Positions 1 to 13,361 of a stretch of 32,000 nucleotides of DNA are shown piece by piece. The position numbers and the translations under genes are program-made. Location: NCBI GenBank assembly GCA_963692945.1, contig OY843585.1:1170001-1202000 (forward strand). Direction: 5' to 3'. Origin of the DNA: Bdellovibrionales bacterium (GTDB taxonomy: Bacteria > Bdellovibrionota > Bdellovibrionia > Bdellovibrionales > UBA1609). Below the pieces are notes generated by a model. The model had not been told where the DNA came from. It worked only from the letters and a program-made list of their open reading frames with translations, and searched no databases. Each line of letters begins with the position of its first letter. Within the stretch, counting starts at the first letter, position 1.

Positions 1-1113
1 GAGAATTCAAGTCAAAAAATAGAAATTAAAGAAACAAAAGATGAAATTACAGAAATTAATAATTTTATTGAAAAAATTAATCAAGATATCGCAATATATA
101 ATGAAAAATTAAAAAATAAAGATCAAACCCAAAAAAAAATAAAAAATCAATTTTGGCAAATTATGCGTTGGAATTATGACAATGCACTAATTCAGCATGA
201 AAAAAATAAAGATAAAACTGAGAAAAAAATAGAAGAAATAAACAATGAGATAACAGGTATTAACAAAAAAATATCTCTTCAAAAAGAAAATATAAAACAA
301 CAACAAGAAAATATGATCAATATTGAAGGGGCAATAAATAATATCAATAATGGATTGAGAGAATTAGGAATTGAAGGATTCAATATAATAAAATTTCAGG
401 AAAATTCATATAAAATTGTGAGAGAGGGTCAGGAAGAAGGACAGTTTCAAACTCTCAGTGAAGGTGAAAAGATGATTATAAGTTTTCTCTATTTTATGGA
501 ATTATGCAAAGGAAAAGAAAGTAAGGAAGAAGTAGTAAAAAATAAAATTGTGGTGATTGATGATCCAATATCAAGCTTATCACATACTTATATTTTTAAT
601 CTCAGTATTTGGATAAAAAACCATTTTTTTAAATCAGAAAATTATAAACAGATTTTGGTATTAACTCACAGCTTGTATTTTTTTCACGAACTCATAAGAT
701 ACGATAAAAATAGAAAACTTTTTCGTTTTCTAAAACTATCAACAAATAAAATTCAAATTGAAAAAATGGAAGAAAATGAAATAAAAAATGAATACGAATC
801 ATACTGGCAAGTTATTAAAGACCATGAAAATGGCAAAGCATCAAATGGATTGCTTGCAAATAGCATGAGGAACATACTTGAACATTTCTTTGGTTTTATA
901 TATAAAGAAGGACTAGAAAAAAAATTAGAGTCCTTAGGTAAGGATAATAAATTCGAATCTTTTCTAAGGTATATGAATAGGGAATCTCATTCAGATGCTA
1001 TAAATATCACTGATGACAAAGAAATAGATTCAAAACTTTTTAAAGATGCTTTTAAAGAAGTATTTACTAAGTCTGGCTATGAAGAACACTATAAAAATAT
1101 GATGAAAACTTAA
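1..1113 (+). CDS. AAA_13-type (PrrC/RloC-like) ABC-fold ATPase, C-terminal ~370 aa; 5' end lies upstream of the window
   Basis: Frame 1 is open from nt 1 (ENSSQKIEIKETKDEITEINNF...), so the 316-aa track ORF starts at an internal Met. A Lys/Glu/Asn coiled-coil insert is followed by the ABC-signature-like LSEGEKMIISFLYF, Walker B IVVIDDPISSL and LTHS. This layout is typical of AAA_13 ATPases. The Walker A motif is not in the window. Confidence 0.6.
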   Translation, partial: ENSSQKIEIKETKDEITEINNFIEKINQDIAIYNEKLKNKDQTQKKIKNQFWQIMRWNYDNALIQHEKNKDKTEKKIEEINNEITGINKKISLQKENIKQQQENMINIEGAINNINNGLRELGIEGFNIIKFQENSYKIVREGQEEGQFQTLSEGEKMIISFLYFMELCKGKESKEEVVKNKIVVIDDPISSLSHTYIFNLSIWIKNHFFKSENYKQILVLTHSLYFFHELIRYDKNRKLFRFLKLSTNKIQIEKMEENEIKNEYESYWQVIKDHENGKASNGLLANSMRNILEHFFGFIYKEGLEKKLESLGKDNKFESFLRYMNRESHSDAINITDDKEIDSKLFKDAFKEVFTKSGYEEHYKNMMKT

Positions 1114-1215
1114 AAGTGTTTCATTTTGAGAATTTCTTTTTAAAAGAGCTTAAGCTTTGAACGATAGAATAATAACTGTTTAAAAACACTGGCTTTTTTT
1201 AAACAATTAAATCAC

Positions 1216-1327
1216 TATCCTAAGACCTTAAACTATCCTTTTTTTAAAACAAAATCTTACTTATTTATTTTTCTTAACTAAGGATATGTCAATATGATGT
1301 ATAATAGCATATGTCTAGTTAAGGATA
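1216..1327 (+). promoter_or_regulatory. Putative promoter/operator for the 1363-2301 gene pair
   Basis: TAAGGATA at 1279-1286 and 1320-1327 (direct, 41 bp apart) bracket a TATAAT at 1300-1305. The reverse-complement half-site TATCCT occurs at 1216-1221 and 1234-1239. An AGGAG Shine-Dalgarno at 1351-1355 lies 7 nt before ATG 1363. Confidence 0.3.
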
Positions 1328-1362
1328 ACTAGTTTTTTAACAAATAACATAGGAGTAAAATT

Positions 1363-1644
1363 ATGGAATCATATTTAGATATAAGTCGTTTTGAACCAGC
1401 TAGAATTGAATTTATAAATCAAGAAATCTCTCTAGAAAGAATTTTGGGAATCTATGACGAGCATAAAGATACTTTATTAGATCATTTAAAAAAAGATAAA
1501 GAAGAATTAGAAAATAGCTTAAAAATACCTGTAGATATAGGTGAAGAAATTCAAAAAGTACAACTTGAAGAAATTGAAAAAACAAAACAAGCTATTAAGA
1601 AAGTAGAAAATTACAAAAATACAAACTCTTACAATCTAAGGTAA
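1363..1644 (+). CDS. Hypothetical small acidic/coiled protein (93 aa)
   Basis: ORF with a good SD (AGGAG, 7-nt spacing). It ends 12 nt before the next co-oriented ORF. I recognise no motif. Confidence 0.45.
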   Translation: MESYLDISRFEPARIEFINQEISLERILGIYDEHKDTLLDHLKKDKEELENSLKIPVDIGEEIQKVQLEEIEKTKQAIKKVENYKNTNSYNLR

Positions 1645-1656
1645 TAGTACTTCATT

Positions 1657-2301
1657 ATGGCTTTAATTAAGAATAGTAAAGGTAAGGAAAATAGCGGATA
1701 TGTCCATATATTTGGCAATGAAAAACTAGGAAGGCTTATTAGTCGTGTTCATAGTGTTTCTAATAAAAATGGGCAAGAACTTAAAAACCTTATAAAAAAA
1801 TATTCAAAACAAATTCTTATAGATAAAAAAAAAGATATAGATAAACAAATAAAAGAATTTTTAAATAGTAGACAATCAGGAATATACCTTCTAAGTGTAG
1901 GAGATATAAAGCATAGAAAAAAACTAAAAGGAATGCAACCAGACTTCATTATTTTTAATAAGATAAATAATAAAAACCTAAAATGTTATTTATTGAAAGT
2001 TACAGACTCTTATAGGATAAGCAAACCTTATACAACAACCATAATAGATTCGATGGAAAAATTTAAATTTAAACATATAAATTTTCATTATAAATATTAT
2101 TGTTGTTTCAATGAAAGCACTAAAAACCAAGTTAGAAAAGGATTTGGAAATAAAATTAGAGAAAATCAATGTTTAACTGGAAAGGATTTATGTAAGCTAT
2201 TGAAAATTAATTATCAAGAAATAAAAAAAATAAGACAAAAAGACCAAAAAGATAATTTAAATTATTTTGTTCAAGAATTGAAAAGTATTTTTAAACTTTG
2301 A
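1657..2301 (+). CDS. Hypothetical basic protein (214 aa), function unknown
   Basis: ORF tightly coupled to the 93-aa ORF. It is Lys-rich and has a QPDFIIF...CYLLKV segment only loosely reminiscent of PD-(D/E)XK. No secure family assignment. Confidence 0.45.
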   Translation: MALIKNSKGKENSGYVHIFGNEKLGRLISRVHSVSNKNGQELKNLIKKYSKQILIDKKKDIDKQIKEFLNSRQSGIYLLSVGDIKHRKKLKGMQPDFIIFNKINNKNLKCYLLKVTDSYRISKPYTTTIIDSMEKFKFKHINFHYKYYCCFNESTKNQVRKGFGNKIRENQCLTGKDLCKLLKINYQEIKKIRQKDQKDNLNYFVQELKSIFKL

Positions 2302-2450
2302 AAAACACAATACAAGATGAAGAAGTAGATATTTTTAATAATCACTATATTTAAAATTTTTAGGATTAAAAAAACTTCTATTTAAAAATTGACAGAATAA
2401 AACAATATATATGTTTTTAAAAAATCATTTTAAAAACAATTAAGATTTTT

Positions 2451-4037
2451 TCATTCTGCAATTTCATCTATACATTTAATAATAAAATCTTCTAGAGTTT
2501 TAAAATCTTTATTCAATTGCTTTGCATCTTCTAATTCGTAAAACGAGTCATGTTTGCTTATATTTCCTCTAGAAGCAATTTCATTAATAACATTTTTAAA
2601 TCCATTTCTCTTATTTTTATTATACCAGTCATTTATTTTACTATCATAAAAACTCTTAAAAGAAGTACTTCTGGGCTTACCCATATAACAAGATAAACAA
2701 TCTAGAAAAGCCCAACCACCTATATAAGCTAAATAAGGATGTTCTACCAGAGATATTTTACAAAGCGAATTATATAAATAATATAATTTTTTATGGGTTA
2801 AATTTTCTAACTTGTCGCTAATATTATTTACAAGCAAGATTTTTGTACTACTTAAGGAGGTCGCTTTTTTCCTTTCCTCTTGTCCTTTTTCCGATCTTAC
2901 TATAATATTTTTATTAGAGATTACTGACATTACACTAGGAGTATCTTTATTTGATTTTTTGTCTTGTTTAGAGCGATAGTTATTAACTTGATCAATAAAT
3001 TTATCTTTTTGCAGTTCTTTTTTTAAAATAATGTACAAATCATGAATATCAGTAAATTTTGTTTTCATAAAATCAATTTCAAAATCATCTAAATGAAGTT
3101 CTCCATATATCCTTTCACTTGCATATTTATTTTTAGTTCCTGATAAGATTTTTGGACGATTAGGAGTTATAAGAGTTCCTTCAATTACTCTATTATTTCT
3201 GAAAAGCCGTATACCAGGTTGTTCGTAACCACCTTTTTTCATAATTACACAAAATCCTTTTACTTTACTTCCTTTATAATCTAATTCAATTTTCTTTTTC
3301 CATAATCTTGTTTTAGATATACTTTCCATCTTATTATTTACTAAAGGATAATTTAATGTTTCTGAAGGTTCAAAATAAGCTTTCGTCTTTTTTTTCCATT
3401 TTTTTGGTAAAATTTCATTATCATATTCAACATCTATTGATAAAAAATTTTTAAATTTTATAAATGTTTCTGCTAAATGAGGGATAACCATATCTTGATA
3501 ATATTCTTTTGACTCTATTCTTTTAGAATTTTTTATAATAATTTTTGTGTAATGATTCTTTTGCTTTTCAATTTTACTAGAAACAGAAACTGCTGTTTTA
3601 TTTTGTTCTAACAATTCATCAAGATTAAATTGAAATATCAATTTTTCTTTAGAATTTAAAGATGAGGTTTCAATTTCCCAATTACTACTGAACCATACAG
3701 CAGATGTTTTCATTCCTATACCGAATTTTGAAAGACTTGATTTTTTATGATTAACACTTACTCCCATTTTAATAGCTTTTTGAAAGTTTTTTCTATTTAT
3801 TCCACTAGCATTATCTAAAATAATTATTTCTTTCTTTTTACTATCTATAGAAATTTTTATCTTTAATTTTATATTCTTCTTTTCAATAACTTGAATAGAC
3901 TTTCTATTATCTATATAAGATTGAACAGAATTATCCACAAATTCTGAAAGAGCAGAATGAACAGAATAAGGTTGATTTTGTAACCATTTATACATAGTCA
4001 TTTCTGGAGAGACATCAACTTTAAAAGAATTAGACAT
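2451..4037 (-). CDS. GHKL (HATPase_c_3) MORC/paraMORC-like ATPase with an unknown ~130-aa C-terminal domain
   Basis: Bergerat-fold motifs are present: EFVDNSVQS (N box), ILDNASGI (G1), KFGIGMKTSAVW (G2), HYTKIIIKN. These are followed by GIRLFRNNRVIEG and IYGELHLDDFEIDFMKTKF segments, as in prokaryotic MORC-like proteins. The gene is co-oriented with the upstream C5 methyltransferase and starts 151 nt downstream of it. Confidence 0.7.
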   Translation of the reverse strand: MSNSFKVDVSPEMTMYKWLQNQPYSVHSALSEFVDNSVQSYIDNRKSIQVIEKKNIKLKIKISIDSKKKEIIILDNASGINRKNFQKAIKMGVSVNHKKSSLSKFGIGMKTSAVWFSSNWEIETSSLNSKEKLIFQFNLDELLEQNKTAVSVSSKIEKQKNHYTKIIIKNSKRIESKEYYQDMVIPHLAETFIKFKNFLSIDVEYDNEILPKKWKKKTKAYFEPSETLNYPLVNNKMESISKTRLWKKKIELDYKGSKVKGFCVIMKKGGYEQPGIRLFRNNRVIEGTLITPNRPKILSGTKNKYASERIYGELHLDDFEIDFMKTKFTDIHDLYIILKKELQKDKFIDQVNNYRSKQDKKSNKDTPSVMSVISNKNIIVRSEKGQEERKKATSLSSTKILLVNNISDKLENLTHKKLYYLYNSLCKISLVEHPYLAYIGGWAFLDCLSCYMGKPRSTSFKSFYDSKINDWYNKNKRNGFKNVINEIASRGNISKHDSFYELEDAKQLNKDFKTLEDFIIKCIDEIAE

Positions 4038-4054
4038 TTAAAACCTCTTTAGCA

Positions 4055-4140
4055 AACCAACTTTATTTGCTGGGCTAATTATTTAACAATCCTTGCATCT
4101 ACAATATCTTTAAAAGATTTGAAAGATAAAAATTCACTTT
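4055..4140 (-). pseudogene. Decayed remnant of a C5-methyltransferase 3' end (motif X region)
   Basis: 86 nt at 4055-4140 align without gaps, at roughly 80% identity by eye, to 4195-4280, the last ~28 codons of the intact methyltransferase. The offset is exactly 140 nt. The remnant frame contains a stop, and the GNAV motif has degenerated (KDIV). Confidence 0.55.
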
Positions 4141-4188
4141 TACACACTGGGTTAGTAACTTAATTTTATTTGTTTATCTAAAAAATTT

Positions 4189-5445
4189 TTATAAAACCAG
4201 ATTTATTTGTTGAGCTAATAATTCAACAATCTTAGCATTTACAGCATTTCCAAAAGATTTGAAAGCTAAAGATTCACTATCTGGTATAAAGGATAGAGAA
4301 TGTAAATTTTGTAACTTTGCAGCTTCAAGTTTAGATATATATCTCATTTCAAACCCAATAATAGGTCTTTGTGTGGAAGTCATAGCAACAAGTGAAGGTA
4401 TTTTATGAGGCTTCAATACACGAATACCAGAAGCTCTAAATTGCAAAATATGTTCCGATAATACATAATTATCTTTAGATCCTCTCCATTCTAGTATTTG
4501 CCAACTATTATAATTTTTATTCAATTCTTTTTTCCAACTATTTAAAAACCTTTTATTTTTCTTATATAAATTTCTAGTATAAACCACAGAGTTTTTTAAC
4601 CAATCAGGTACTTTATTTGCTTTTCTTACATAGGAAGGTAGTCGAGAAAGCAAATCATTTCTGGAAGTGCAGTTATTTAATTTTTCTCCATAAGATCCCT
4701 TATATTTATACATATCTTTTAAACTTATTTTTTTAAAATTTAAAGGATAAGTGGCTCCTATTTCTGAAGCCACAATAGATACAGATGAAAGAGTATTAAT
4801 CTTACAGTTATCTAATAATTTTTGCCATTGCTGAATTTGAAGTTTTTTTTCTGATTCTATTTTTTTATGACTATCAGAAGAAATGAGTATATCTTTTAAT
4901 TGTTTCATGGATTGTTTTTTATTTGGCCATTGAAACTTTTTTAAATGTTTATTACTTTTAAATCCTAAAATAAAAATACGTTTTCTATTTTGAGGAATAC
5001 CAATGTCTAGCGGAGAAATGACTTTATAAATAACTTCATAACCTAATTTATTAAATGAATTTTTAATAAATTTCCAAAATTTTCCACCTTCAATATTTAA
5101 TATATTAGGTACATTTTCTAAAATTAAAAAATCTGGAGAGTGATATTTTGTAATTCTCAAGATATCCTTAATTAATTTTCCTGAATTTGGACATTTATAT
5201 CCATCTTTTTTCCCTGCTAATGAAAAAGACTGACAAGGAAATCCTGCACATAAAATATCATGCTCTGGAATATCTGTCTCACAAATTTCTCTTATGTCCC
5301 CTTTAGGTTTAATACCAAAGTTTTTATAGTAAAGTTTTTGTAACTGAGTATTGATTTCAGATGCAAATACACATTCAAAATTTCCTGCATTGAGTAACCC
5401 TTTATGAAATCCACCAATACCAGAAAAAAGATCAATAAATTTCAT
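4189..5445 (-). CDS. DNA (cytosine-5)-methyltransferase
   Basis: The canonical C5-MTase motifs are all present: I FSGIGGF, IV GFPCQSFSLAGK, VI ENVPNIL, VIII QNRKRIFILGF, X GNAV. A long variable (TRD) region lies between VIII and X. Confidence 0.93.
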   Translation of the reverse strand: MKFIDLFSGIGGFHKGLLNAGNFECVFASEINTQLQKLYYKNFGIKPKGDIREICETDIPEHDILCAGFPCQSFSLAGKKDGYKCPNSGKLIKDILRITKYHSPDFLILENVPNILNIEGGKFWKFIKNSFNKLGYEVIYKVISPLDIGIPQNRKRIFILGFKSNKHLKKFQWPNKKQSMKQLKDILISSDSHKKIESEKKLQIQQWQKLLDNCKINTLSSVSIVASEIGATYPLNFKKISLKDMYKYKGSYGEKLNNCTSRNDLLSRLPSYVRKANKVPDWLKNSVVYTRNLYKKNKRFLNSWKKELNKNYNSWQILEWRGSKDNYVLSEHILQFRASGIRVLKPHKIPSLVAMTSTQRPIIGFEMRYISKLEAAKLQNLHSLSFIPDSESLAFKSFGNAVNAKIVELLAQQINLVL

Positions 5446-5671
5446 AGCAAAAGATATATCGGTTTTTTATCTTTAGTTACTTAGTTAATAATTTGGTAAG
5501 AAACAGACTAAAGTCATAAAGTTTAAAAGTTTATTCTGACAGGAATTGTCAATTAAAATCGCTGTGGCTTTTTACTCTATCAGTTATTTAATGAACACTT
5601 TTTCTCATTGCATTATACCCCTACTGCCTATATATTCCTGAGTTCAGTAATTTTCTCTTAGAGGGAGTAGA

Positions 5672-6649
5672 ATGAATTTAAAATCTAGTTATACTAACAA
5701 AAAAGGATTTTTTTTGGGTGAAAAAAATTTAGAACAACTAAATGACTTAGGTCTTATCACGGAAAATATCATTTCTCCAAGTAAAGAGATGCTTGCCTAT
5801 GAAACCTTGTGGGCTATCCATGATATTAAAGAGAAAATGTTAAGAGAACTTTTTAGCAATCACATTCCATCTAAAGCTTTACTGGAAGTATCGTCAGCAC
5901 AAGCTGATTTTTTTGAACCAGAAAAATCTTTAAATGAAACTGAAAATAAAGTTAGTGTATTTTTAGAAGAGCAATCACTGGATCAAAATCATTTTTCATT
6001 TATTGTAAATAAAAACTTTCAATGTCCTGAAGTTTTAATGAAAGAATATCCTGTCGGATTATTTTACTACAAAGGAGATTTAAGTTTTCTAGAAACAAGA
6101 CTGATTTCCATAGTGGGTTCTAGAAAGCCATCTAAAGAAGGAATAACAAGAGCTCAAAACTTAGCTAAAGGATTGGTTGAAGAAAATTTTACTATTGTAT
6201 CTGGCTTAGCAGAAGGGATAGATGCATCGGCTCACAAATCAGCTATTGAAAATAATGGCAGAACCATTGGAATTATAGGAACACCAATCAATGAATATTA
6301 CCCTAAAAGTAATAAAAAATTACAAGAAGAGATTGAAAAAAATCATCTTCTTATAAGTCAGGTTCCGTTTTATAGATATGCTAATGAACCTTTTTCCAGT
6401 CGTAAATTTCATTTTCCAAGAAGAAATAAATTAATGGCTTCCATATCAGAAGCTACTATTGTTGTGGAAGCTTCGGACACAAGTGGTTCTCACTCTCAAG
6501 CTAGAGAATGTCTTAAACAAAAGAAAAAATTATTTATACTAGATTCTTGTTTTAATAATGAAAAAATTAAATGGCCTAAGAAATACTTAGAAAAAGGAGC
6601 TATTAGAGTTAAAGAACTTTCAGATATCTTAGAAAACATCAATGAGTGA
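5672..6649 (+). CDS. dprA: DprA/Smf-family (SLOG Rossmann) protein, lacking a long C-terminal winged-helix extension
   Basis: EYPVGLFYYKGDLSFL...ISIVGSRKPSKEG...IVSGLAEGIDASAHKSAI...GIIGTPINEYYP...RRNKLMASISEATIVVEASDTSGSHSQARE matches the DprA core. SD GAGGGAG lies upstream of the ATG. The gene is divergent from the methyltransferase. Confidence 0.8.
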   Translation: MNLKSSYTNKKGFFLGEKNLEQLNDLGLITENIISPSKEMLAYETLWAIHDIKEKMLRELFSNHIPSKALLEVSSAQADFFEPEKSLNETENKVSVFLEEQSLDQNHFSFIVNKNFQCPEVLMKEYPVGLFYYKGDLSFLETRLISIVGSRKPSKEGITRAQNLAKGLVEENFTIVSGLAEGIDASAHKSAIENNGRTIGIIGTPINEYYPKSNKKLQEEIEKNHLLISQVPFYRYANEPFSSRKFHFPRRNKLMASISEATIVVEASDTSGSHSQARECLKQKKKLFILDSCFNNEKIKWPKKYLEKGAIRVKELSDILENINE

Positions 6650-6695: not shown

Positions 6696-8612
6696 TCAAT
6701 CTTGATTCTCAAAATATTTTAAAATACCTTGTAATAATTTATTGTATTCATCTTCAATATTTTCATATTTTAAATTTTCAAAAATTAGATTCTTAGTTTG
6801 TTTAATTATGTCATCAATTTCTTTATCTAAATCAATCTGTTTTTTTTGCTTTAACCAATTTTTGATATTTTTAATATTGTTTCTTTCCTTTAAAATATTT
6901 TTATCAAATTTTAAATCTCTTATATCTTTATCATTTAAAACCTTGTTTACCTGCTCTACAATAAAATTATTTTTTATAAAATCTTCACCTGTTACTGCTT
7001 TAATTTTTGAATCAATATCCTGATAATTTTTCCAACTCCCAAATATTTTCTGCTTTTTATGTTGTTTCTTGTACTGTTTAGCCGTCTCGTCACTATCACT
7101 GATAATTAAGCATTTTCTTTTTGCCAGCTCAATTAATGGAGTAATTGTTTTTATATTTTTTACACCTTTAACATGACAAAACCCTATTTCTTTAAATTTT
7201 TCTTTTATTTCTTCAGTCTGTTGTTCTAAATATTTTTGAAATAAAAATTTATCTCTCCATCCTTCAAAAATAATATTTTTTTCTTTTAAAAAATCAAAAG
7301 TGGAAAATCCAAGAGCATTATATAGCAACTCTTCCTCTGTTATATTTGATTCTTCCGCTTGACTGATATTAGTAATTTCATTTTCCTTTTTAACTATATA
7401 ATGTCGATCAATATCACTAGAATCAATCATAAAGATAGAATGTGTGCTATAAAGAACATAATTCTTATTTGCAATTTTAATCAACTCATCTCGTAAATAA
7501 CGAGCTCCGCTTGGGTGTAAGTTTATTTCAGCCTCATCTACTAAAATCAATGTATTTTCTAATAAATTAGTTCTTACACGTGTTGAAATCATTAACAAAA
7601 AAGTAATAAATCTTTTAAAACCATCACTTCGTTTATCAAAATCATAAATATTTCGTTCTTTTATTCCAGGTATAATAAGATCACTATCTTTTTTAAGAGA
7701 AAATTCTATATTTTTATATTCTTTCCATACTTCTCTGAAATGACTTGTAGTTTTTCTTGCAATACCATCAAGATAATTTTGAAACTGATTTGAACTATAT
7801 CCTTTTTTACTCATAATATCTTCTGAGATATTTCTAATACCTGAAAGAGTAAACATATTTTTTAAAGGTATACAAGAATCTGGATTATTTGCAAATCCAT
7901 CAATATCTACAGATCTAGGTAACAAATTTTCTTCTTTATACTCCCAAAATATAATTTTTGGTAAATTTCTTTTTGTGATATCTGAAATAATACCTCCAAC
8001 TAATTTCTCTAAGTCTTGAAGCGTAGCATCTTCTAAATAATCTTCTGGAAGATCGGACCAATCTTTGAGTTTAATTAATGGCCATTTTGAAAGAAGATAT
8101 GCTTTATCTTTTAATTTTAACTGATAATCAGCAGGACAATTCTTACTTGGCTTCATCCATCCATTCAATAAATTAAATCCATCTTCTAATTTATAGTAGT
8201 TACAATTTTTATTTTCATTTAAAATATCAACCTGATATAATCCTTTATTTTGAGTATTACAAAAACCCTTTACAGATTGATTTTGACCATTCAAAGATAC
8301 AATTTCTGGATTCTCTTCATCTGAAATAATGTATGATGATAAAATTGTAAATATTTCATCTAACTCTTTTTTTTCAAATTCAAAGATGAATTTCACAAAT
8401 GACTTTTCAACTATATCTTCATCAGGTAATGCTTCTCTTTGATCTCTCAGTTTTTCTGGTTTATAACTATCCCCCAATAAAGACAATGCTTTTAAAATAT
8501 TGGATTTACCAGATTCATTTATACCTACAAGCACACGACAAGTAGGATTAAATTTAAATGTAATTTCTTCGATAGAACGAAAATTTTTTATATTCACTTG
8601 TTCAATTTTCAT
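6696..8612 (-). CDS. OLD-family nuclease (N-terminal ABC-type ATPase + C-terminal Toprim)
   Basis: N-terminus MKIEQVNIKNFRSI...GINESGKSN (Walker A); LILVDEAEINLHP (Walker B); STHS. C-terminus IIFEGWRDK (Toprim Glu) and LIISDSDETAK (DxD). Confidence 0.8.
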   Translation of the reverse strand: MKIEQVNIKNFRSIEEITFKFNPTCRVLVGINESGKSNILKALSLLGDSYKPEKLRDQREALPDEDIVEKSFVKFIFEFEKKELDEIFTILSSYIISDEENPEIVSLNGQNQSVKGFCNTQNKGLYQVDILNENKNCNYYKLEDGFNLLNGWMKPSKNCPADYQLKLKDKAYLLSKWPLIKLKDWSDLPEDYLEDATLQDLEKLVGGIISDITKRNLPKIIFWEYKEENLLPRSVDIDGFANNPDSCIPLKNMFTLSGIRNISEDIMSKKGYSSNQFQNYLDGIARKTTSHFREVWKEYKNIEFSLKKDSDLIIPGIKERNIYDFDKRSDGFKRFITFLLMISTRVRTNLLENTLILVDEAEINLHPSGARYLRDELIKIANKNYVLYSTHSIFMIDSSDIDRHYIVKKENEITNISQAEESNITEEELLYNALGFSTFDFLKEKNIIFEGWRDKFLFQKYLEQQTEEIKEKFKEIGFCHVKGVKNIKTITPLIELAKRKCLIISDSDETAKQYKKQHKKQKIFGSWKNYQDIDSKIKAVTGEDFIKNNFIVEQVNKVLNDKDIRDLKFDKNILKERNNIKNIKNWLKQKKQIDLDKEIDDIIKQTKNLIFENLKYENIEDEYNKLLQGILKYFENQD

Positions 8613-8892: not shown

Positions 8893-9612
8893 TTACAGAA
8901 AATAACGAGGCATTTGATCCCAAGTGCGTCCTTCTAAAATACGACCTGTCTTATGCTTTCTAACTCCACCCCATTGTTTAAAAAAGAAAGGAACATTCTT
9001 TGCTACACATTGATCTCTGATTTCAGTCACCCATTCTGGTTTCATAGGACGAGCCTTTGGGCCTGATTCCCCACCAACAATAACCCAATCAATTCCCTTT
9101 AATTTTAATCTCTTTGGAAGATGCCCTAAAAGAGGTTCTATAGACAAAAACTTTACCTTTGCCTGTGTCTTTAAGAGATGGTCAATTCTGCTTAAATAGT
9201 TCTTATTTTCTATACTGACACCCATCCAAATATTTTTTGTCCAATTCAACTTTGAAGATAATTTTTCCAACCTATCTGCTCTTTTTGTTAAGACTTGGAA
9301 TTGATGTTGAGGGCAGTTGTTCATCACATCAAAAACTTTTTTAATAAAATCCAAAGGACTATCTTTATGAAAAAGATCACTCATAGAATTTACAAAAATT
9401 ACTTTTGGCTTTTTCCATTGCATAGGAATATTTAAAGCCTGTTTATGAAAAGTCAGTTTAAATCCATTTCTATAATTATATTGTTTCATATTTTGCAGTC
9501 TGTAGGACATCCTCTCTGCATAACAATTTTTACATCCAGGACTGATCTTATTACAACCAGTCAAAGGATTCCAAGTTGCCTCTGTCCATTCAATACTTGA
9601 TAGTGTCGCCAT
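8893..9612 (-). CDS. Phage Gp37/Gp68-family protein (DUF5131, three-Cys motif)
   Basis: The N-terminus [30 protein letters not shown] is the hallmark of this family (Cx6CxxC). It lies 13 nt downstream of the TcmP-like gene. Confidence 0.8.
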
Positions 9613-9625
9613 CTCTAACCTGTTT

Positions 9626-10525
9626 TTAAAATTTCTTTAAAATATCCTTAGCAATTTTAACTCCTACTCTATTTTCAGCAGCAAAACAAAATAAAAACAA
9701 AGGATTGTTTTTTGAATTATATAATTTTGCAGGGTTAGTTGCTACTTCTTTAAATACAGTTTTAAGTCTTTTTATAAAAAACCGACCTATTTCATCCAGA
9801 TTTACTTTTTTTATTAGGTTATTCCCTTCATTTTCAAAAAATGCTGTTTGAGAATCTGTCTTGTAAAACCTAGATTCCCAATCTGTTGTACCAAACAAAT
9901 TATTTAATATATCCCTATGTTGCTCATTTATTTGCCCATCTTTTCTCAAAAGTCTATTCACACCTACTCCCAAAGGAAATAAAACCCATAAATCTATAGC
10001 CTTTGTCTGTGCAATAGATTTAATAGTTTCCCATTGAATTTCCATACCAAAAGGATCAAGGAACATAACAGCACGATGACTTTTCCAATTCCTTTTACAT
10101 AATTCTTGAATATATTTATTTGCATCTCTATTTATCATTTTTATTTTATCTTTTAATATTGGATATTTATCTTTTAGTTTTGACAATTCTTTAAAATTTT
10201 TTTCATTTTTTTCAATAAAGATATATTCTTGAAATAATGGTTGAACTTCCAGTGCTTTTACTGCTGAACCTTTTATAAAATTTAACTCCTCTGTATCTTC
10301 TTCTAAAAGAGGATAAGTATCTGATTTTTTTCTCCGAGATACTCTATATCCAGTTCCAGCAAAGGCATCAATATAAGCAAAATTAAAACTTTGTCTATTC
10401 ATTATTTTAGAATAAGCAGATAAATATTTATAAAGTATCTCAAGTTTTTGATTTGTCCAATCACCACCAAATTTTTGATTTGTTATTTGTTTATACATTT
10501 TATTTTTTTCTTTGCTTTGGTCCAA
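9626..10525 (-). CDS. Three-Cys-motif partner protein TcmP-like (methyltransferase-like fold suspected)
   Basis: [23 protein letters not shown]...[12 protein letters not shown] resembles the TcmP N-terminus and a DxFAGxG SAM-motif-I-like element. It shows the canonical pairing with a Gp37/Gp68 gene. Confidence 0.6.
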
Positions 10526-11634: not shown

Positions 11635-12864
11635 ATGGCTTCATCTTCTAAATTACCTGTAAATATTGAAACTCTAAAGTGGGCTAGAGAGAATGCTGGT
11701 TTTACTCAAAATGATGTTCCAGATTTTGATTCCAATGATATTAAAAAAATAGAAAAAGGTAAAAAAAATATCACTCTAAAAGAAGCTAACACCTTAGCAA
11801 ATAATTATGGAGTATCTATACACATATTTTCACTTCCTCCTAAAGTAAGTTTAGACAGTAGCATTAAAGATTTTAGGAAACTTCCAGATTCTAAAAAACA
11901 TGTTTACAGTAAAGAGTTAAGACTCTTCATAAACAAGATGAAATATAGACAAGAATGGATGAGAGACTACTTAAAAGAAGAAAACGTTAGCCCTCTTAGT
12001 TTTATAGGTTCAGTGAATGTTAAAAACACTAATCTACAATCTGTAGCAGAAGAAATTGTAAAAACATTTTTTCAATCCAGACAAAAATATTTCAATTTTT
12101 TTAGAACGAAAAAGAAAATAAAAGAAACGCTCAAAGATAGAAAAAAAACTAAAGAACAGTTTCTTAATGATTTGATAAAAAGATTAGCAGATTATGGAAT
12201 TATTACTTTAAAATGTAAGGGGTTTGATAACAATAATAAAATAGATCTTGAAGATGCTAGAGGGTTTGTTTTAATAGACAAATATGTTCCATTTATTTTT
12301 ATCAATTCTTCAGATCACATAACAGCACAAATTTTCACTCTCATGCATGAGATAGTTCATATATTTATAGGTGAAGAAGGAGTTTCAGGCAATTTAGTAA
12401 AAAATAACAGTAACCAGATAGAGTTATTTTGCAATCAAGTTGCATCAAGAATACTGTTGCCAGAAAAAGATTTAAACATCACTTCTATTGATAAACACTT
12501 TTTTGAAAATAAAATCAGAAAAATATCAACTTCTTTCTTTATAAGCAAACTATCTGTTTTATTAAGGTTAAAAGAAATCTCTTTAATAACATCTAAGAAT
12601 TTTGATAAAAAATGGAATGAATATCAAAAAGATATGAAAGAATGGATAAAAACTCAAGAAGAAAACAAGGAAAAAAACAAAGAAAGAAATACTAACAGTG
12701 GTAATTATTACAATACAGCAATTAGCAGAAGAAATAGACAGTTTATCAAATCAGTCTATGGAGCTTATCAACATAAATCTATTACAGCCTCACAAGCATT
12801 GTCTCTCTTAGATGTAAACATGAAAACATTAAAAAAACTATATCAAAAAGCTATCAAGAAGTAA
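11635..12864 (+). CDS. XRE-type HTH fused to ImmA/IrrE (DUF955, COG2856) zinc metallopeptidase
   Basis: N-terminal HTH (LKWARENAGFTQNDV...ITLKEANTLANNYGVS). The HExxH motif lies in FTLMHEIVHIFIGEE. The gene ends 8 nt upstream of the PIN-like gene. Confidence 0.8.
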   Translation: MASSSKLPVNIETLKWARENAGFTQNDVPDFDSNDIKKIEKGKKNITLKEANTLANNYGVSIHIFSLPPKVSLDSSIKDFRKLPDSKKHVYSKELRLFINKMKYRQEWMRDYLKEENVSPLSFIGSVNVKNTNLQSVAEEIVKTFFQSRQKYFNFFRTKKKIKETLKDRKKTKEQFLNDLIKRLADYGIITLKCKGFDNNNKIDLEDARGFVLIDKYVPFIFINSSDHITAQIFTLMHEIVHIFIGEEGVSGNLVKNNSNQIELFCNQVASRILLPEKDLNITSIDKHFFENKIRKISTSFFISKLSVLLRLKEISLITSKNFDKKWNEYQKDMKEWIKTQEENKEKNKERNTNSGNYYNTAISRRNRQFIKSVYGAYQHKSITASQALSLLDVNMKTLKKLYQKAIKK

Positions 12865-12872
12865 GAAATAAA

Positions 12873-13361
12873 ATGATTTATTGTTTAGATACAAATTTAT
12901 TTATTGAATGTTGGAATAATTATTATAGAAATACATTTTTTAATCAGAAAAATTTTTTTGATTTATTAAAAGAAAAATCTTCTTTTTGTGATTTATATAT
13001 TCATGAACAAGTTAAGATTGAGCTTCAAAAAAAAGACGATGAACTCCTAAATTGGTTTAATGAAAATATAGATATTTTTAAATCATTTGATAATAAAAAT
13101 AACGAAATTATGGATACATATATTAAAATTAACAAAAAATATCCAGGGTTAAAAAAGAATAGTCCAGATTCAGCAGACCCTTTCATTATAGCATCTGCTA
13201 TAGTTTTAAAAGGTAAAATTGTTTCTGATGAAAGAGGAGGAGGTCAACTACCTCAAGAAAGAAGTAAATATAAAAGCATACCACAAGTATGTGTTGCAGA
13301 AAAGATAGATCATTTAAGTATTTTTGACTTTATCGAAGAAGTTAAAATTAAATTTAATTAA
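12873..13361 (+). CDS. DUF4411 PIN-like nuclease-fold protein
   Basis: The N-terminus MIYCLDTNLFIE has a PIN-type acidic residue, with later acidic positions (SADPFIIASA, VSDE). It shows the canonical pairing with an ImmA/IrrE gene. The stop codon falls in the first bases of repeat copy 2. Confidence 0.6.
   Translation: MIYCLDTNLFIECWNNYYRNTFFNQKNFFDLLKEKSSFCDLYIHEQVKIELQKKDDELLNWFNENIDIFKSFDNKNNEIMDTYIKINKKYPGLKKNSPDSADPFIIASAIVLKGKIVSDERGGGQLPQERSKYKSIPQVCVAEKIDHLSIFDFIEEVKIKFN

Follow-up and report, generated by a model that had tools for sequence, protein, structure and literature searches.

What can a cytosine DNA methyltransferase (methylase) accomplish together with a GHKL ATPase when no restriction enzyme accompanies them as a conserved partner? 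This question is raised by a pair of co-oriented genes on contig OY843585.1 of a Bdellovibrionales bacterium, which we analysed in a stretch of 32,000 nucleotides (nt), hereafter the window. The open reading frames (ORFs) under study lie within its region 1–5500, where the G+C content is 22–26%. A C5-cytosine methylase gene precedes a gene for a 528-amino-acid (aa) GHKL protein, and the original prediction, made from the letters alone, had the ORF coordinates, sizes and domain calls of both right, including the spacing of 151 nt between them (4038–4188). Our preferred reading, to which we give somewhat better than even weight, is that the pair is a self-contained methylation-linked defence module and a variant of the PD-lambda-5 system, with a paraMORC-type GHKL+S5 module in place of a ParB-like one and a Dcm-class in place of a Dam-class methylase. 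The GHKL+S5 module would couple the sensing of DNA or of the methylase to a C-terminal effector, possibly a non-canonical HEPN-like RNase, and a convergent 214-aa OR​F nearby would be a leftover. The pair is probably better read in this way than as a restriction system missing its nuclease, because the GHKL protein's C-terminal domain is otherwise found only in the validated PD-lambda-5.

The GHKL protein, its C-terminal domain and PD-lambda-5

The C-terminal domain of ~130 aa had been called unassigned, and with respect to Pfam it is: neither the window copy nor 15 orthologous copies have a match, and a sequence-profile search of the PDB returned noise only. The domain is recognized by the PADLOC PD-Lambda-5_A models PDLC04000 (E = 1.6e-32, aa 341–526) and PDLC04006 (E = 4.3e-26), the aligned part of the models being their last ~190 positions. 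When 1.84 billion representative proteins were searched with a profile, only 330 clusters with the domain came up, a small and discrete family in which it is always C-terminal. A word-indexed protein search with an alignment of the domain yielded a single fragment. Eighty-four of 95 sampled non-redundant family members carry a ParB-like N-terminal region with the consensus LDxxNPR...GNRRxCALK, and the remaining ones are GHKL fragments or singletons; the GNRRxCALK part was seen only in the ParB-type architecture, the N-terminus of the window protein being GHKL. The context of the ParB-type proteins was derived from 80 metagenome loci, 77 of which had a called ORF with the C-terminal domain. In 67 of these 77 loci a gene of ~293 aa follows immediately downstream on the same strand, and its representative is a D12-class N6-adenine methylase (PF02086). 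This combination of ParB-type architecture and D12 methylase is PD-lambda-5, which is listed as 'ParB/HEPN, methyltransferase' with protein B assigned to MethyltransfD12 at 99.9% (PMC9519451). PD-lambda-5 was validated in 2022 as protecting E. coli against phages with unusual breadth, required an mrr-deleted host in that work and was described as a compacted 'RM+Abi' system (PMC9519451). Two main architectures thus contain the C-terminal domain. Their NTPase-type N-terminal modules are unrelated, as are the classes of their methylases, and a DNA methylase is the neighbour in both.

The N-terminal part of the window protein matches PF13589 (HATPase_c_3) over aa 24–157 (E = 2e-17). Ninety-six homologues of the protein were found, and an alignment of 27 homologues with 34–63% identity (alignment A1) shows invariant E32 and N36 in the N-box, D75 and G79 in G1, and G106, G108 and K110 in G2, as well as R277, R280, R283, Y311-G312-E313 and K325 in the middle domain. 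An AlphaFold model of the full protein built from the 27-homologue alignment (pLDDT 84.6) comprises the GHKL domain, a beta-rich domain reaching to ~aa 330 and the helical C-terminal domain, with a helical segment and a disordered linker (aa 362–395) between the latter two. By Foldseek, the first ~400 aa resemble Hsp90/TRAP1/GRP94, SMCHD1 and MORC3 across their two-domain ATPase modules (E 1e-12 to 5e-14); alignments to the N-terminal plus middle modules of Hsp90, SMCHD1 and MORC3 span ~350–430 columns and are about equally good. The MORC-like segments that had been described behind the ATPase domain hold as a GHKL domain followed by a transducer/S5-type domain and fall short as a specific MORC assignment, MORC3 not being favoured over Hsp90 or SMCHD1 by Foldseek. 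The conserved ATP-binding motifs argue for the Bergerat fold of paraMORC-type ATPases, and the alignments of the model to two-domain modules fit the S5-type second domain that also characterizes them.

Modelled alone, the C-terminal domain is predicted with high confidence (AlphaFold pLDDT 94.1) as an all-helical fold of six helices. Its invariant residues are K417, Y422, N492, K495 and H496, those of the GNxxKH motif (N492, K495, H496) being supported by alignments A1, A2, A4, A6 and A7, and an acidic residue is conserved at E/D446. In the model, GNxxKH ends the long helix 474–496, before the loop to the last helix (506–527), E/D446 lies in the preceding long helix 434–451, and an extra helix (460–471) is placed in between. 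In HEPN domains the Rx4-6H motif closes helix 3, helix 2 bears an acidic residue, and helices 2 and 3 are separated by an insert (PMC3710099). The layout of motif, acidic residue and insert in the C-terminal domain, as given by a predicted model only, agrees with this description, and its Asn takes the place of the polar residue that usually comes after the Arg. The top Foldseek match in the PDB is the HEPN protein 4nqf and the best TM-score (0.56) belongs to 2hsb, with E-values of ~1 or worse; 2hsb and 7ae8 (two chains), both HEPN, are among the 50 PDB matches listed. No match in the PDB or BFVD was significant. The check proposed beforehand, a structure prediction for residues ~400–528 followed by a search for nuclease folds, delivered an all-helical structure, no significant nuclease-fold match and weak hints of HEPN. 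Homology of the domain to the HEPN fold is plausible but unproven, and we infer RNase activity on top of that homology.

Conservation of the pair and origin of the intergenic gap

In a scan of one genome per species we identified 244 relatives of the GHKL protein and analysed the best 80 loci, in which C5 methylases were detected by phmmer with the window methylase. A C5 methylase is present in 77 of the 80 loci; in 67 it directly precedes the GHKL gene in the same orientation, often overlapping the start of that gene by 1–56 nt. The association is far beyond chance. It had been stated in advance that the proposed pairing would fail if homologues of the GHKL gene were not syntenic with methylases, and the neighbourhood survey found the linkage conserved. 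The GHKL genes thereby have DNA methylase genes alongside, as do the operons by which paraMORCs are recognized.

For comparison within this set, clade A denotes the 16 loci with the window protein's C-terminal domain plus the two closest metagenomic relatives (L083, L084), and clade B the other loci. Clade A loci are composed of methylase and GHKL alone. Median identities to the window are 55% for the methylase and 48% for the GHKL protein in clade A, and 39% and 29%, respectively, in clade B, the two proteins co-diverging. The pair is inherited as a unit whose genes ancestrally abut or overlap. Genes 3' of the pair differ between the clade A loci (transposases, DarG, a hydrolase, a protease) and include no recognizable nuclease; in the window, only the convergent restriction-enzyme-like ORF lies there. 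The 16 clade A loci, L083 and L084 have neither a restriction enzyme nor a Vsr or helicase conserved beside the pair, nor any other nuclease. The MzaB model scores 21.5 bits in the window at a cut-off of 850, and the PADLOC 2023 models would not call the locus as a system. Directly upstream of the methylase, 7 of the 16 clade A loci (L004, L006, L011, L012, L013, L015, L016; at 6285–6677 in L011) encode an ORF of ~130 aa that is absent from the window. It has no Vsr, Pfam or PADLOC match and was rejected as a Vsr partner; it may act as a controller or represent a third component. In two of the 16 loci, L008 and L016, the latter also among those just listed, an inserted ORF splits the GHKL gene into N- and C-terminal pieces beside a full-length methylase. 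Such decay is the pattern expected of a costly effector and lends the effector reading circumstantial support.

The window methylase itself is complete. PF00145 covers it from end to end (E = 3.4e-68), TIGR00675 matches with the same E-value (E = 3.4e-68), and motifs I (FSGIGG), IV (PCQ), VI (ENV), VIII (QNRKR) and X (GNAV) can be read in the translation, with the catalytic Cys71 in GFPCQ and all catalytic motifs intact. Similarity to M.HhaI extends over the catalytic half (E = 7e-49, aa 1–197), the target-recognition region aligns to no solved methylase, and at L083, the closest related locus, the methylase is 73% identical to that of the window.

Unlike in the relatives, where the two genes overlap or abut, methylase and GHKL genes are separated in the window. 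The gap is a decayed tandem duplication (~140 nt) of an originally tight junction and not a regulatory spacer, because 4036–4138, which takes up most of it, is a direct copy of 4176–4278, the 3' end of the methylase gene, with 79% identity at a spacing of 140 nt, and because the junction is kept in a three-way alignment with that of L083. In this alignment the proximal copy has lost the reading frame and has kept the junction with the ribosome-binding site. At L083, where the GHKL protein is 62% identical to that of the window, the distance from methylase stop to GHKL start is 3 nt; tblastn with the C-terminus of the L083 methylase matches window positions 4043–4147. The duplicated segment also contains a short inverted repeat, AGCAAA-N9-TTTGCT, at 4049–4078 (minus strand), shortly before the GHKL ribosome-binding site, and diverged copies of this repeat are present at 4152–4181 and 4189–4218.

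Table 1. Features of the methylase–GHKL locus; positions refer to the window unless a related locus is named.
Feature	Position	Strand	Size or basis
C5 cytosine DNA methyltransferase	4189–5445	-	418 aa; PF00145 and TIGR00675
Intergenic gap between methylase and GHKL genes	4038–4188		151 nt exactly
Decayed 103-nt direct duplicate of the methylase gene 3' end	4036–4138	-	repeat search, 79% identity
GHKL/S5 (paraMORC-type) ATPase with PD-lambda-5A-type C-terminal domain	2451–4037	-	528 aa; PF13589
Bergerat-fold ATP-binding domain, aa 24–157	3567–3968	-	Pfam coordinates
Predicted beta-rich middle (S5/transducer-like) domain, aa ~175–330	3048–3515	-	model secondary structure, Foldseek
C-terminal all-helical domain (predicted), aa 396–528	2454–2852	-	PADLOC PD-Lambda-5_A, AlphaFold
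GNxxKH motif, aa 491–496, G-N-I-S-K-H	2550–2567	-	alignments and helix boundaries
Convergent type II restriction-enzyme homologue	1657–2301	+	214 aa; PADLOC REase_II
Split GHKL loci	L008 6375–9116; L016 5882–9029		inserted ORFs 338 and 440 aa

The convergent ORF and competing explanations

The locus had been described as lacking a visible nuclease, which is wrong for the window: the 214-aa ORF matches the PADLOC REase_II model PDLC03487, derived from type II restriction endonucleases (REases) in REBASE, over its full length (E = 1.1e-25), and runs convergently at 149 nt from the GHKL stop. These properties, together with a frame that has stayed intact in very AT-rich DNA, would fit a three-gene, type II-like restriction-modification (R-M) system in which the REase homologue cuts unmethylated DNA, the C5 methylase protects and the GHKL protein serves as an accessory DNA-looping or remodelling ATPase, a role proposed for paraMORCs alongside nucleases by Iyer et al. 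2008 (PMC2292703). We consider this improbable, more so than any other explanation discussed here. The ORF has few relatives, three of them with context or annotation: a Campylobacter plasmid gene annotated as restriction endonuclease and overlapping a PF01555 N6_N4 methylase upstream of it; P0099, which shares an overlap with an N6_N4 plus RAMA methylase; and P0098, which has no methylase nearby. A C5 methylase accompanies none of the three. These homologues read [PA]D-x17-[IV]-E-L-K-D-G (PD in two, AD in P0099; alignment A5). In the window ORF the corresponding stretch is PD-x17-L-K-V-T-D-S, whose spacing leaves no place for an indel; the PD is thus kept and the catalytic Glu and Lys are replaced by Lys and Thr. 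Phmmer detected no homologue of the ORF in the 80 related loci, nor was one found in L083 or L084, despite methylases there that are 50–77% identical to that of the window, and no N6_N4 methylase or remnant of one is present anywhere in the 32 kb. Because its relatives pair with N6_N4 methylases, its ELK has become KVT and related loci have no homologue, the ORF is unlikely to be the partner of the pair or the seat of restriction activity that had been suspected in it. It is probably a stray, catalytically suspect leftover of a different (N4/N6-methylase) R-M family. Measured against a classical type II R-M system, the locus has a methylase with intact motifs and has neither an adjacent cognate REase with an intact site nor a conserved methylase–REase pair. 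The finding also corrects an annotation trap, in that a neighbouring REase homologue looks like the missing nuclease and is probably a degenerate stray.

Two further explanations dispense with the 214-aa ORF and assign the GHKL protein a different task. It might be a regulator or assistant of the methylase (epigenetic control, maintenance methylation), or a MutL-like factor in the repair of mismatches arising from deamination of 5-methylcytosine (m5C), with the C-terminal domain as an adaptor that binds protein or DNA. MutL is the closest functional paradigm for methylation-linked GHKL+S5 proteins, recruitment to repair was allowed for by Iyer et al. (PMC2292703), seven sister-clade loci carry a Vsr (PF03852, E = 1.7e-19), and neither the canonical HEPN arginine nor a significant nuclease match is present in the C-terminal domain. 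We nevertheless regard such a role as unlikely, since the same C-terminal domain is also partnered by Dam-class N6-adenine methylases, in a combination that protects against phages and has no use for repair after deamination; moreover, Vsr is absent from the clade with this C-terminal domain, the locus is set in a defence island, and a split or truncated GHKL gene beside an intact methylase, as in L008 and L016, is typical of a costly effector. Just as low is the probability we assign to the C-terminal domain being a DNA nuclease, which would make the pair a compact ATP-dependent R-M enzyme that restricts unmethylated DNA and not an RNase-based abortive system. The predicted fold is all-alpha and bears no resemblance to PD-(D/E)XK, HNH, GIY-YIG or PLD nucleases, its sole and weak fold hints being HEPN, and the invariant residues listed above include no metal-binding acidic cluster.

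In the preferred reading as a PD-lambda-5 variant, the methylase would mark host DNA with m5C, and the GHKL+S5 module would dimerise on ATP, as Hsp90 also does, and engage DNA as MutL and MORC proteins do, or monitor the methylase. It would sense invading DNA that is unmethylated, or a disturbance or loss of methylase function, and pass this signal to the C-terminal domains, which in dimerised form would make up the effector, most likely a non-canonical HEPN-like RNase using N492, K495 and H496. The outcome would be abortive or growth-arrest immunity like that of PrrC/RloC, with a direct DNA-targeting activity as the main alternative.

Several observations weigh against this reading. The analogy with PD-lambda-5 transfers a phenotype and no mechanism. 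The HEPN matches of the C-terminal domain have the poor Foldseek E-values given above, and no Pfam HEPN family matches it; membership of the Ymh group was rejected, as PF09509 matches none of the 16 scanned copies (window plus 15 orthologues) at E <= 10. The position of the canonical HEPN Arg is a Gly, so that the domain departs from Rx4-6H, and the Lys/Arg residues flanking the motif are not conserved across the family. HHpred gave DUF4145 a probability of only 35.6% in the study of Vassallo (PMC9519451). Among our 95 family members a single one matches DUF4145 (E = 3.5e-6); P0102, P0129 and others examined individually have no such match. An hhalign comparison of the domain with the HEPN C-terminus of a PrrC-like protein encoded elsewhere in the window indicated no relationship. 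The C-terminal domain may be a methylase- or DNA-binding sensor and no effector at all. In the window, furthermore, the 140-nt duplication has uncoupled the two genes, which leaves expression of the GHKL gene there not assured, and the intact 214-codon frame in DNA of ~22–25% G+C suggests continued selection on the convergent ORF and hence some function.

A more far-reaching proposal, which we put forward tentatively and with distinctly less confidence than the reading above, is that immunity needs no conventional nuclease and nothing beyond a MORC-type GHKL ATPase together with a cytosine methylase. The ATPase clamp would read DNA methylation or the integrity of the methylase and fire a hitherto unclassified GNxxKH effector that is interchangeable between ParB-type and GHKL-type sensors. 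If this is true, defence systems of a modular 'methylase + NTPase-effector' class exist, and the pair would serve as an uncomplicated bacterial model of the way in which MORC-family ATPases came to be linked to DNA methylation. If the preferred reading is right, PD-lambda-5 would be one face of a modular family and not an isolated curiosity of E. coli prophages: ParB-like or paraMORC NTPase modules would drive the same small GNxxKH effector domain, always partnered by a methylase, of a different class in each case. The pair offers a testable two-gene system for self/non-self discrimination by methylation without a classical restriction enzyme, for the role of the C-terminal domain and for the coupling of MORC-like ATPases to DNA methylation, which bears on eukaryotic MORC biology.

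Genomic setting and comparison with known systems

The methylase–GHKL pair belongs to a defence island that also contains PrrC-like, OLD-family, ShosA-like and DUF5131 genes. At the window start (1–1113, plus strand) a PrrC/RloC-like ABC ATPase is encoded (AAA_13, E = 8e-57; PADLOC PDC-S06, E = 1e-119; PrrC, E = 1e-11), whose frame is open to the edge, the gene being cut by the window start, and whose C-terminus bears a canonical HEPN-type RNILEH motif. Divergent from the methylase is a DprA/ShosA-like gene (5672–6649, plus strand; PADLOC ShosA, E = 3e-81). ShosT was not detectable in the window (tblastn E = 0.77), so that ShosA stands alone there; in L083 (5098–6638) and L084 (5098–6376) ShosA- and ShosT-like genes lie co-oriented directly upstream of the methylase–GHKL pair. 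The next gene (6696–8612, minus strand) encodes an OLD-family ATPase-TOPRIM nuclease (AAA_15 and OLD-like_TOPRIM; PADLOC Old, E = 2.5e-33) and is a stand-alone defence gene. A DUF5131 protein (8893–9612, minus strand; E = 7e-104; PADLOC candidate systems PDC-M41B and PDC-M30B, E ~1e-120) and the neighbouring 299-aa ORF without Pfam match (9626–10525, minus strand) probably make up a candidate defence system of two genes. A gene for a protein with HTH and M78 peptidase (ImmA/IrrE-like) domains and, immediately after it, a DUF4411 gene (together 11635–13361, plus strand) form a toxin–antitoxin-like pair at the island edge, and from ~19 kb onwards the window contains housekeeping genes (glutamate dehydrogenase, class II tRNA synthetase, CTP synthase). 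Promoter and terminator scans of 1100–5800 were uninformative, promoter-like sites being fewer than in shuffled sequences.

The statement in the original prediction that no mechanism was known for a methylase–GHKL pair lacking a nuclease overlooks prior work (PMC2292703, PMC3710099, PMC9519451). GHKL ATPases of the paraMORC type were described in R-M operons in 2008 by Iyer et al. (PMC2292703), and paraMORC-HEPN(Ymh) fusions in R-M neighbourhoods were proposed in 2013 as analogues of PrrC/RloC (PMC3710099). Knowledge of the general class, paraMORC ATPases encoded in methylase operons, dates back to 2008, and the locus is not categorically new. In the literature searched we found no description of a GHKL-fused version of the PD-lambda-5A C-terminal domain, nor of a domain swap between ParB-type and GHKL-type partners with the methylase neighbour kept.

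PrrC/RloC is a working analogy only: in both cases an NTPase is joined to a C-terminal effector (HEPN-type in PrrC/RloC, a candidate one in the window protein) and tied to an R-M or methylase locus, latent until infection, but PrrC and RloC have ABC-type ATPases, a canonical Rx4-6H and a type I R-M partner, and share no sequence relationship with the window protein. Closer are the paraMORC-HEPN(Ymh) fusions, in which a small helical C-terminal domain bearing an ...N-x-x-x-H motif is likewise joined to a paraMORC ATPase beside a methylase, and for which the same logic of an ATPase-gated RNase guarding R-M function was proposed. Ymh, however, keeps Rx4-6H, whereas the window domain has Gly for Arg and only N, K and H are invariant. 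With PD-lambda-5 the pair shares a homologous C-terminal domain with the same invariant GNxxKH, the organization as a two-gene unit with an adjacent DNA methylase, and a location in mobile or island DNA. The two differ in the N-terminal module, which is ParB-like in PD-lambda-5 and a GHKL+S5 ATPase in the window, in the methylase, which is N6-adenine-specific (D12) in the former and C5-cytosine-specific in the latter, and in gene order, with the methylase downstream in PD-lambda-5 and upstream in the window.

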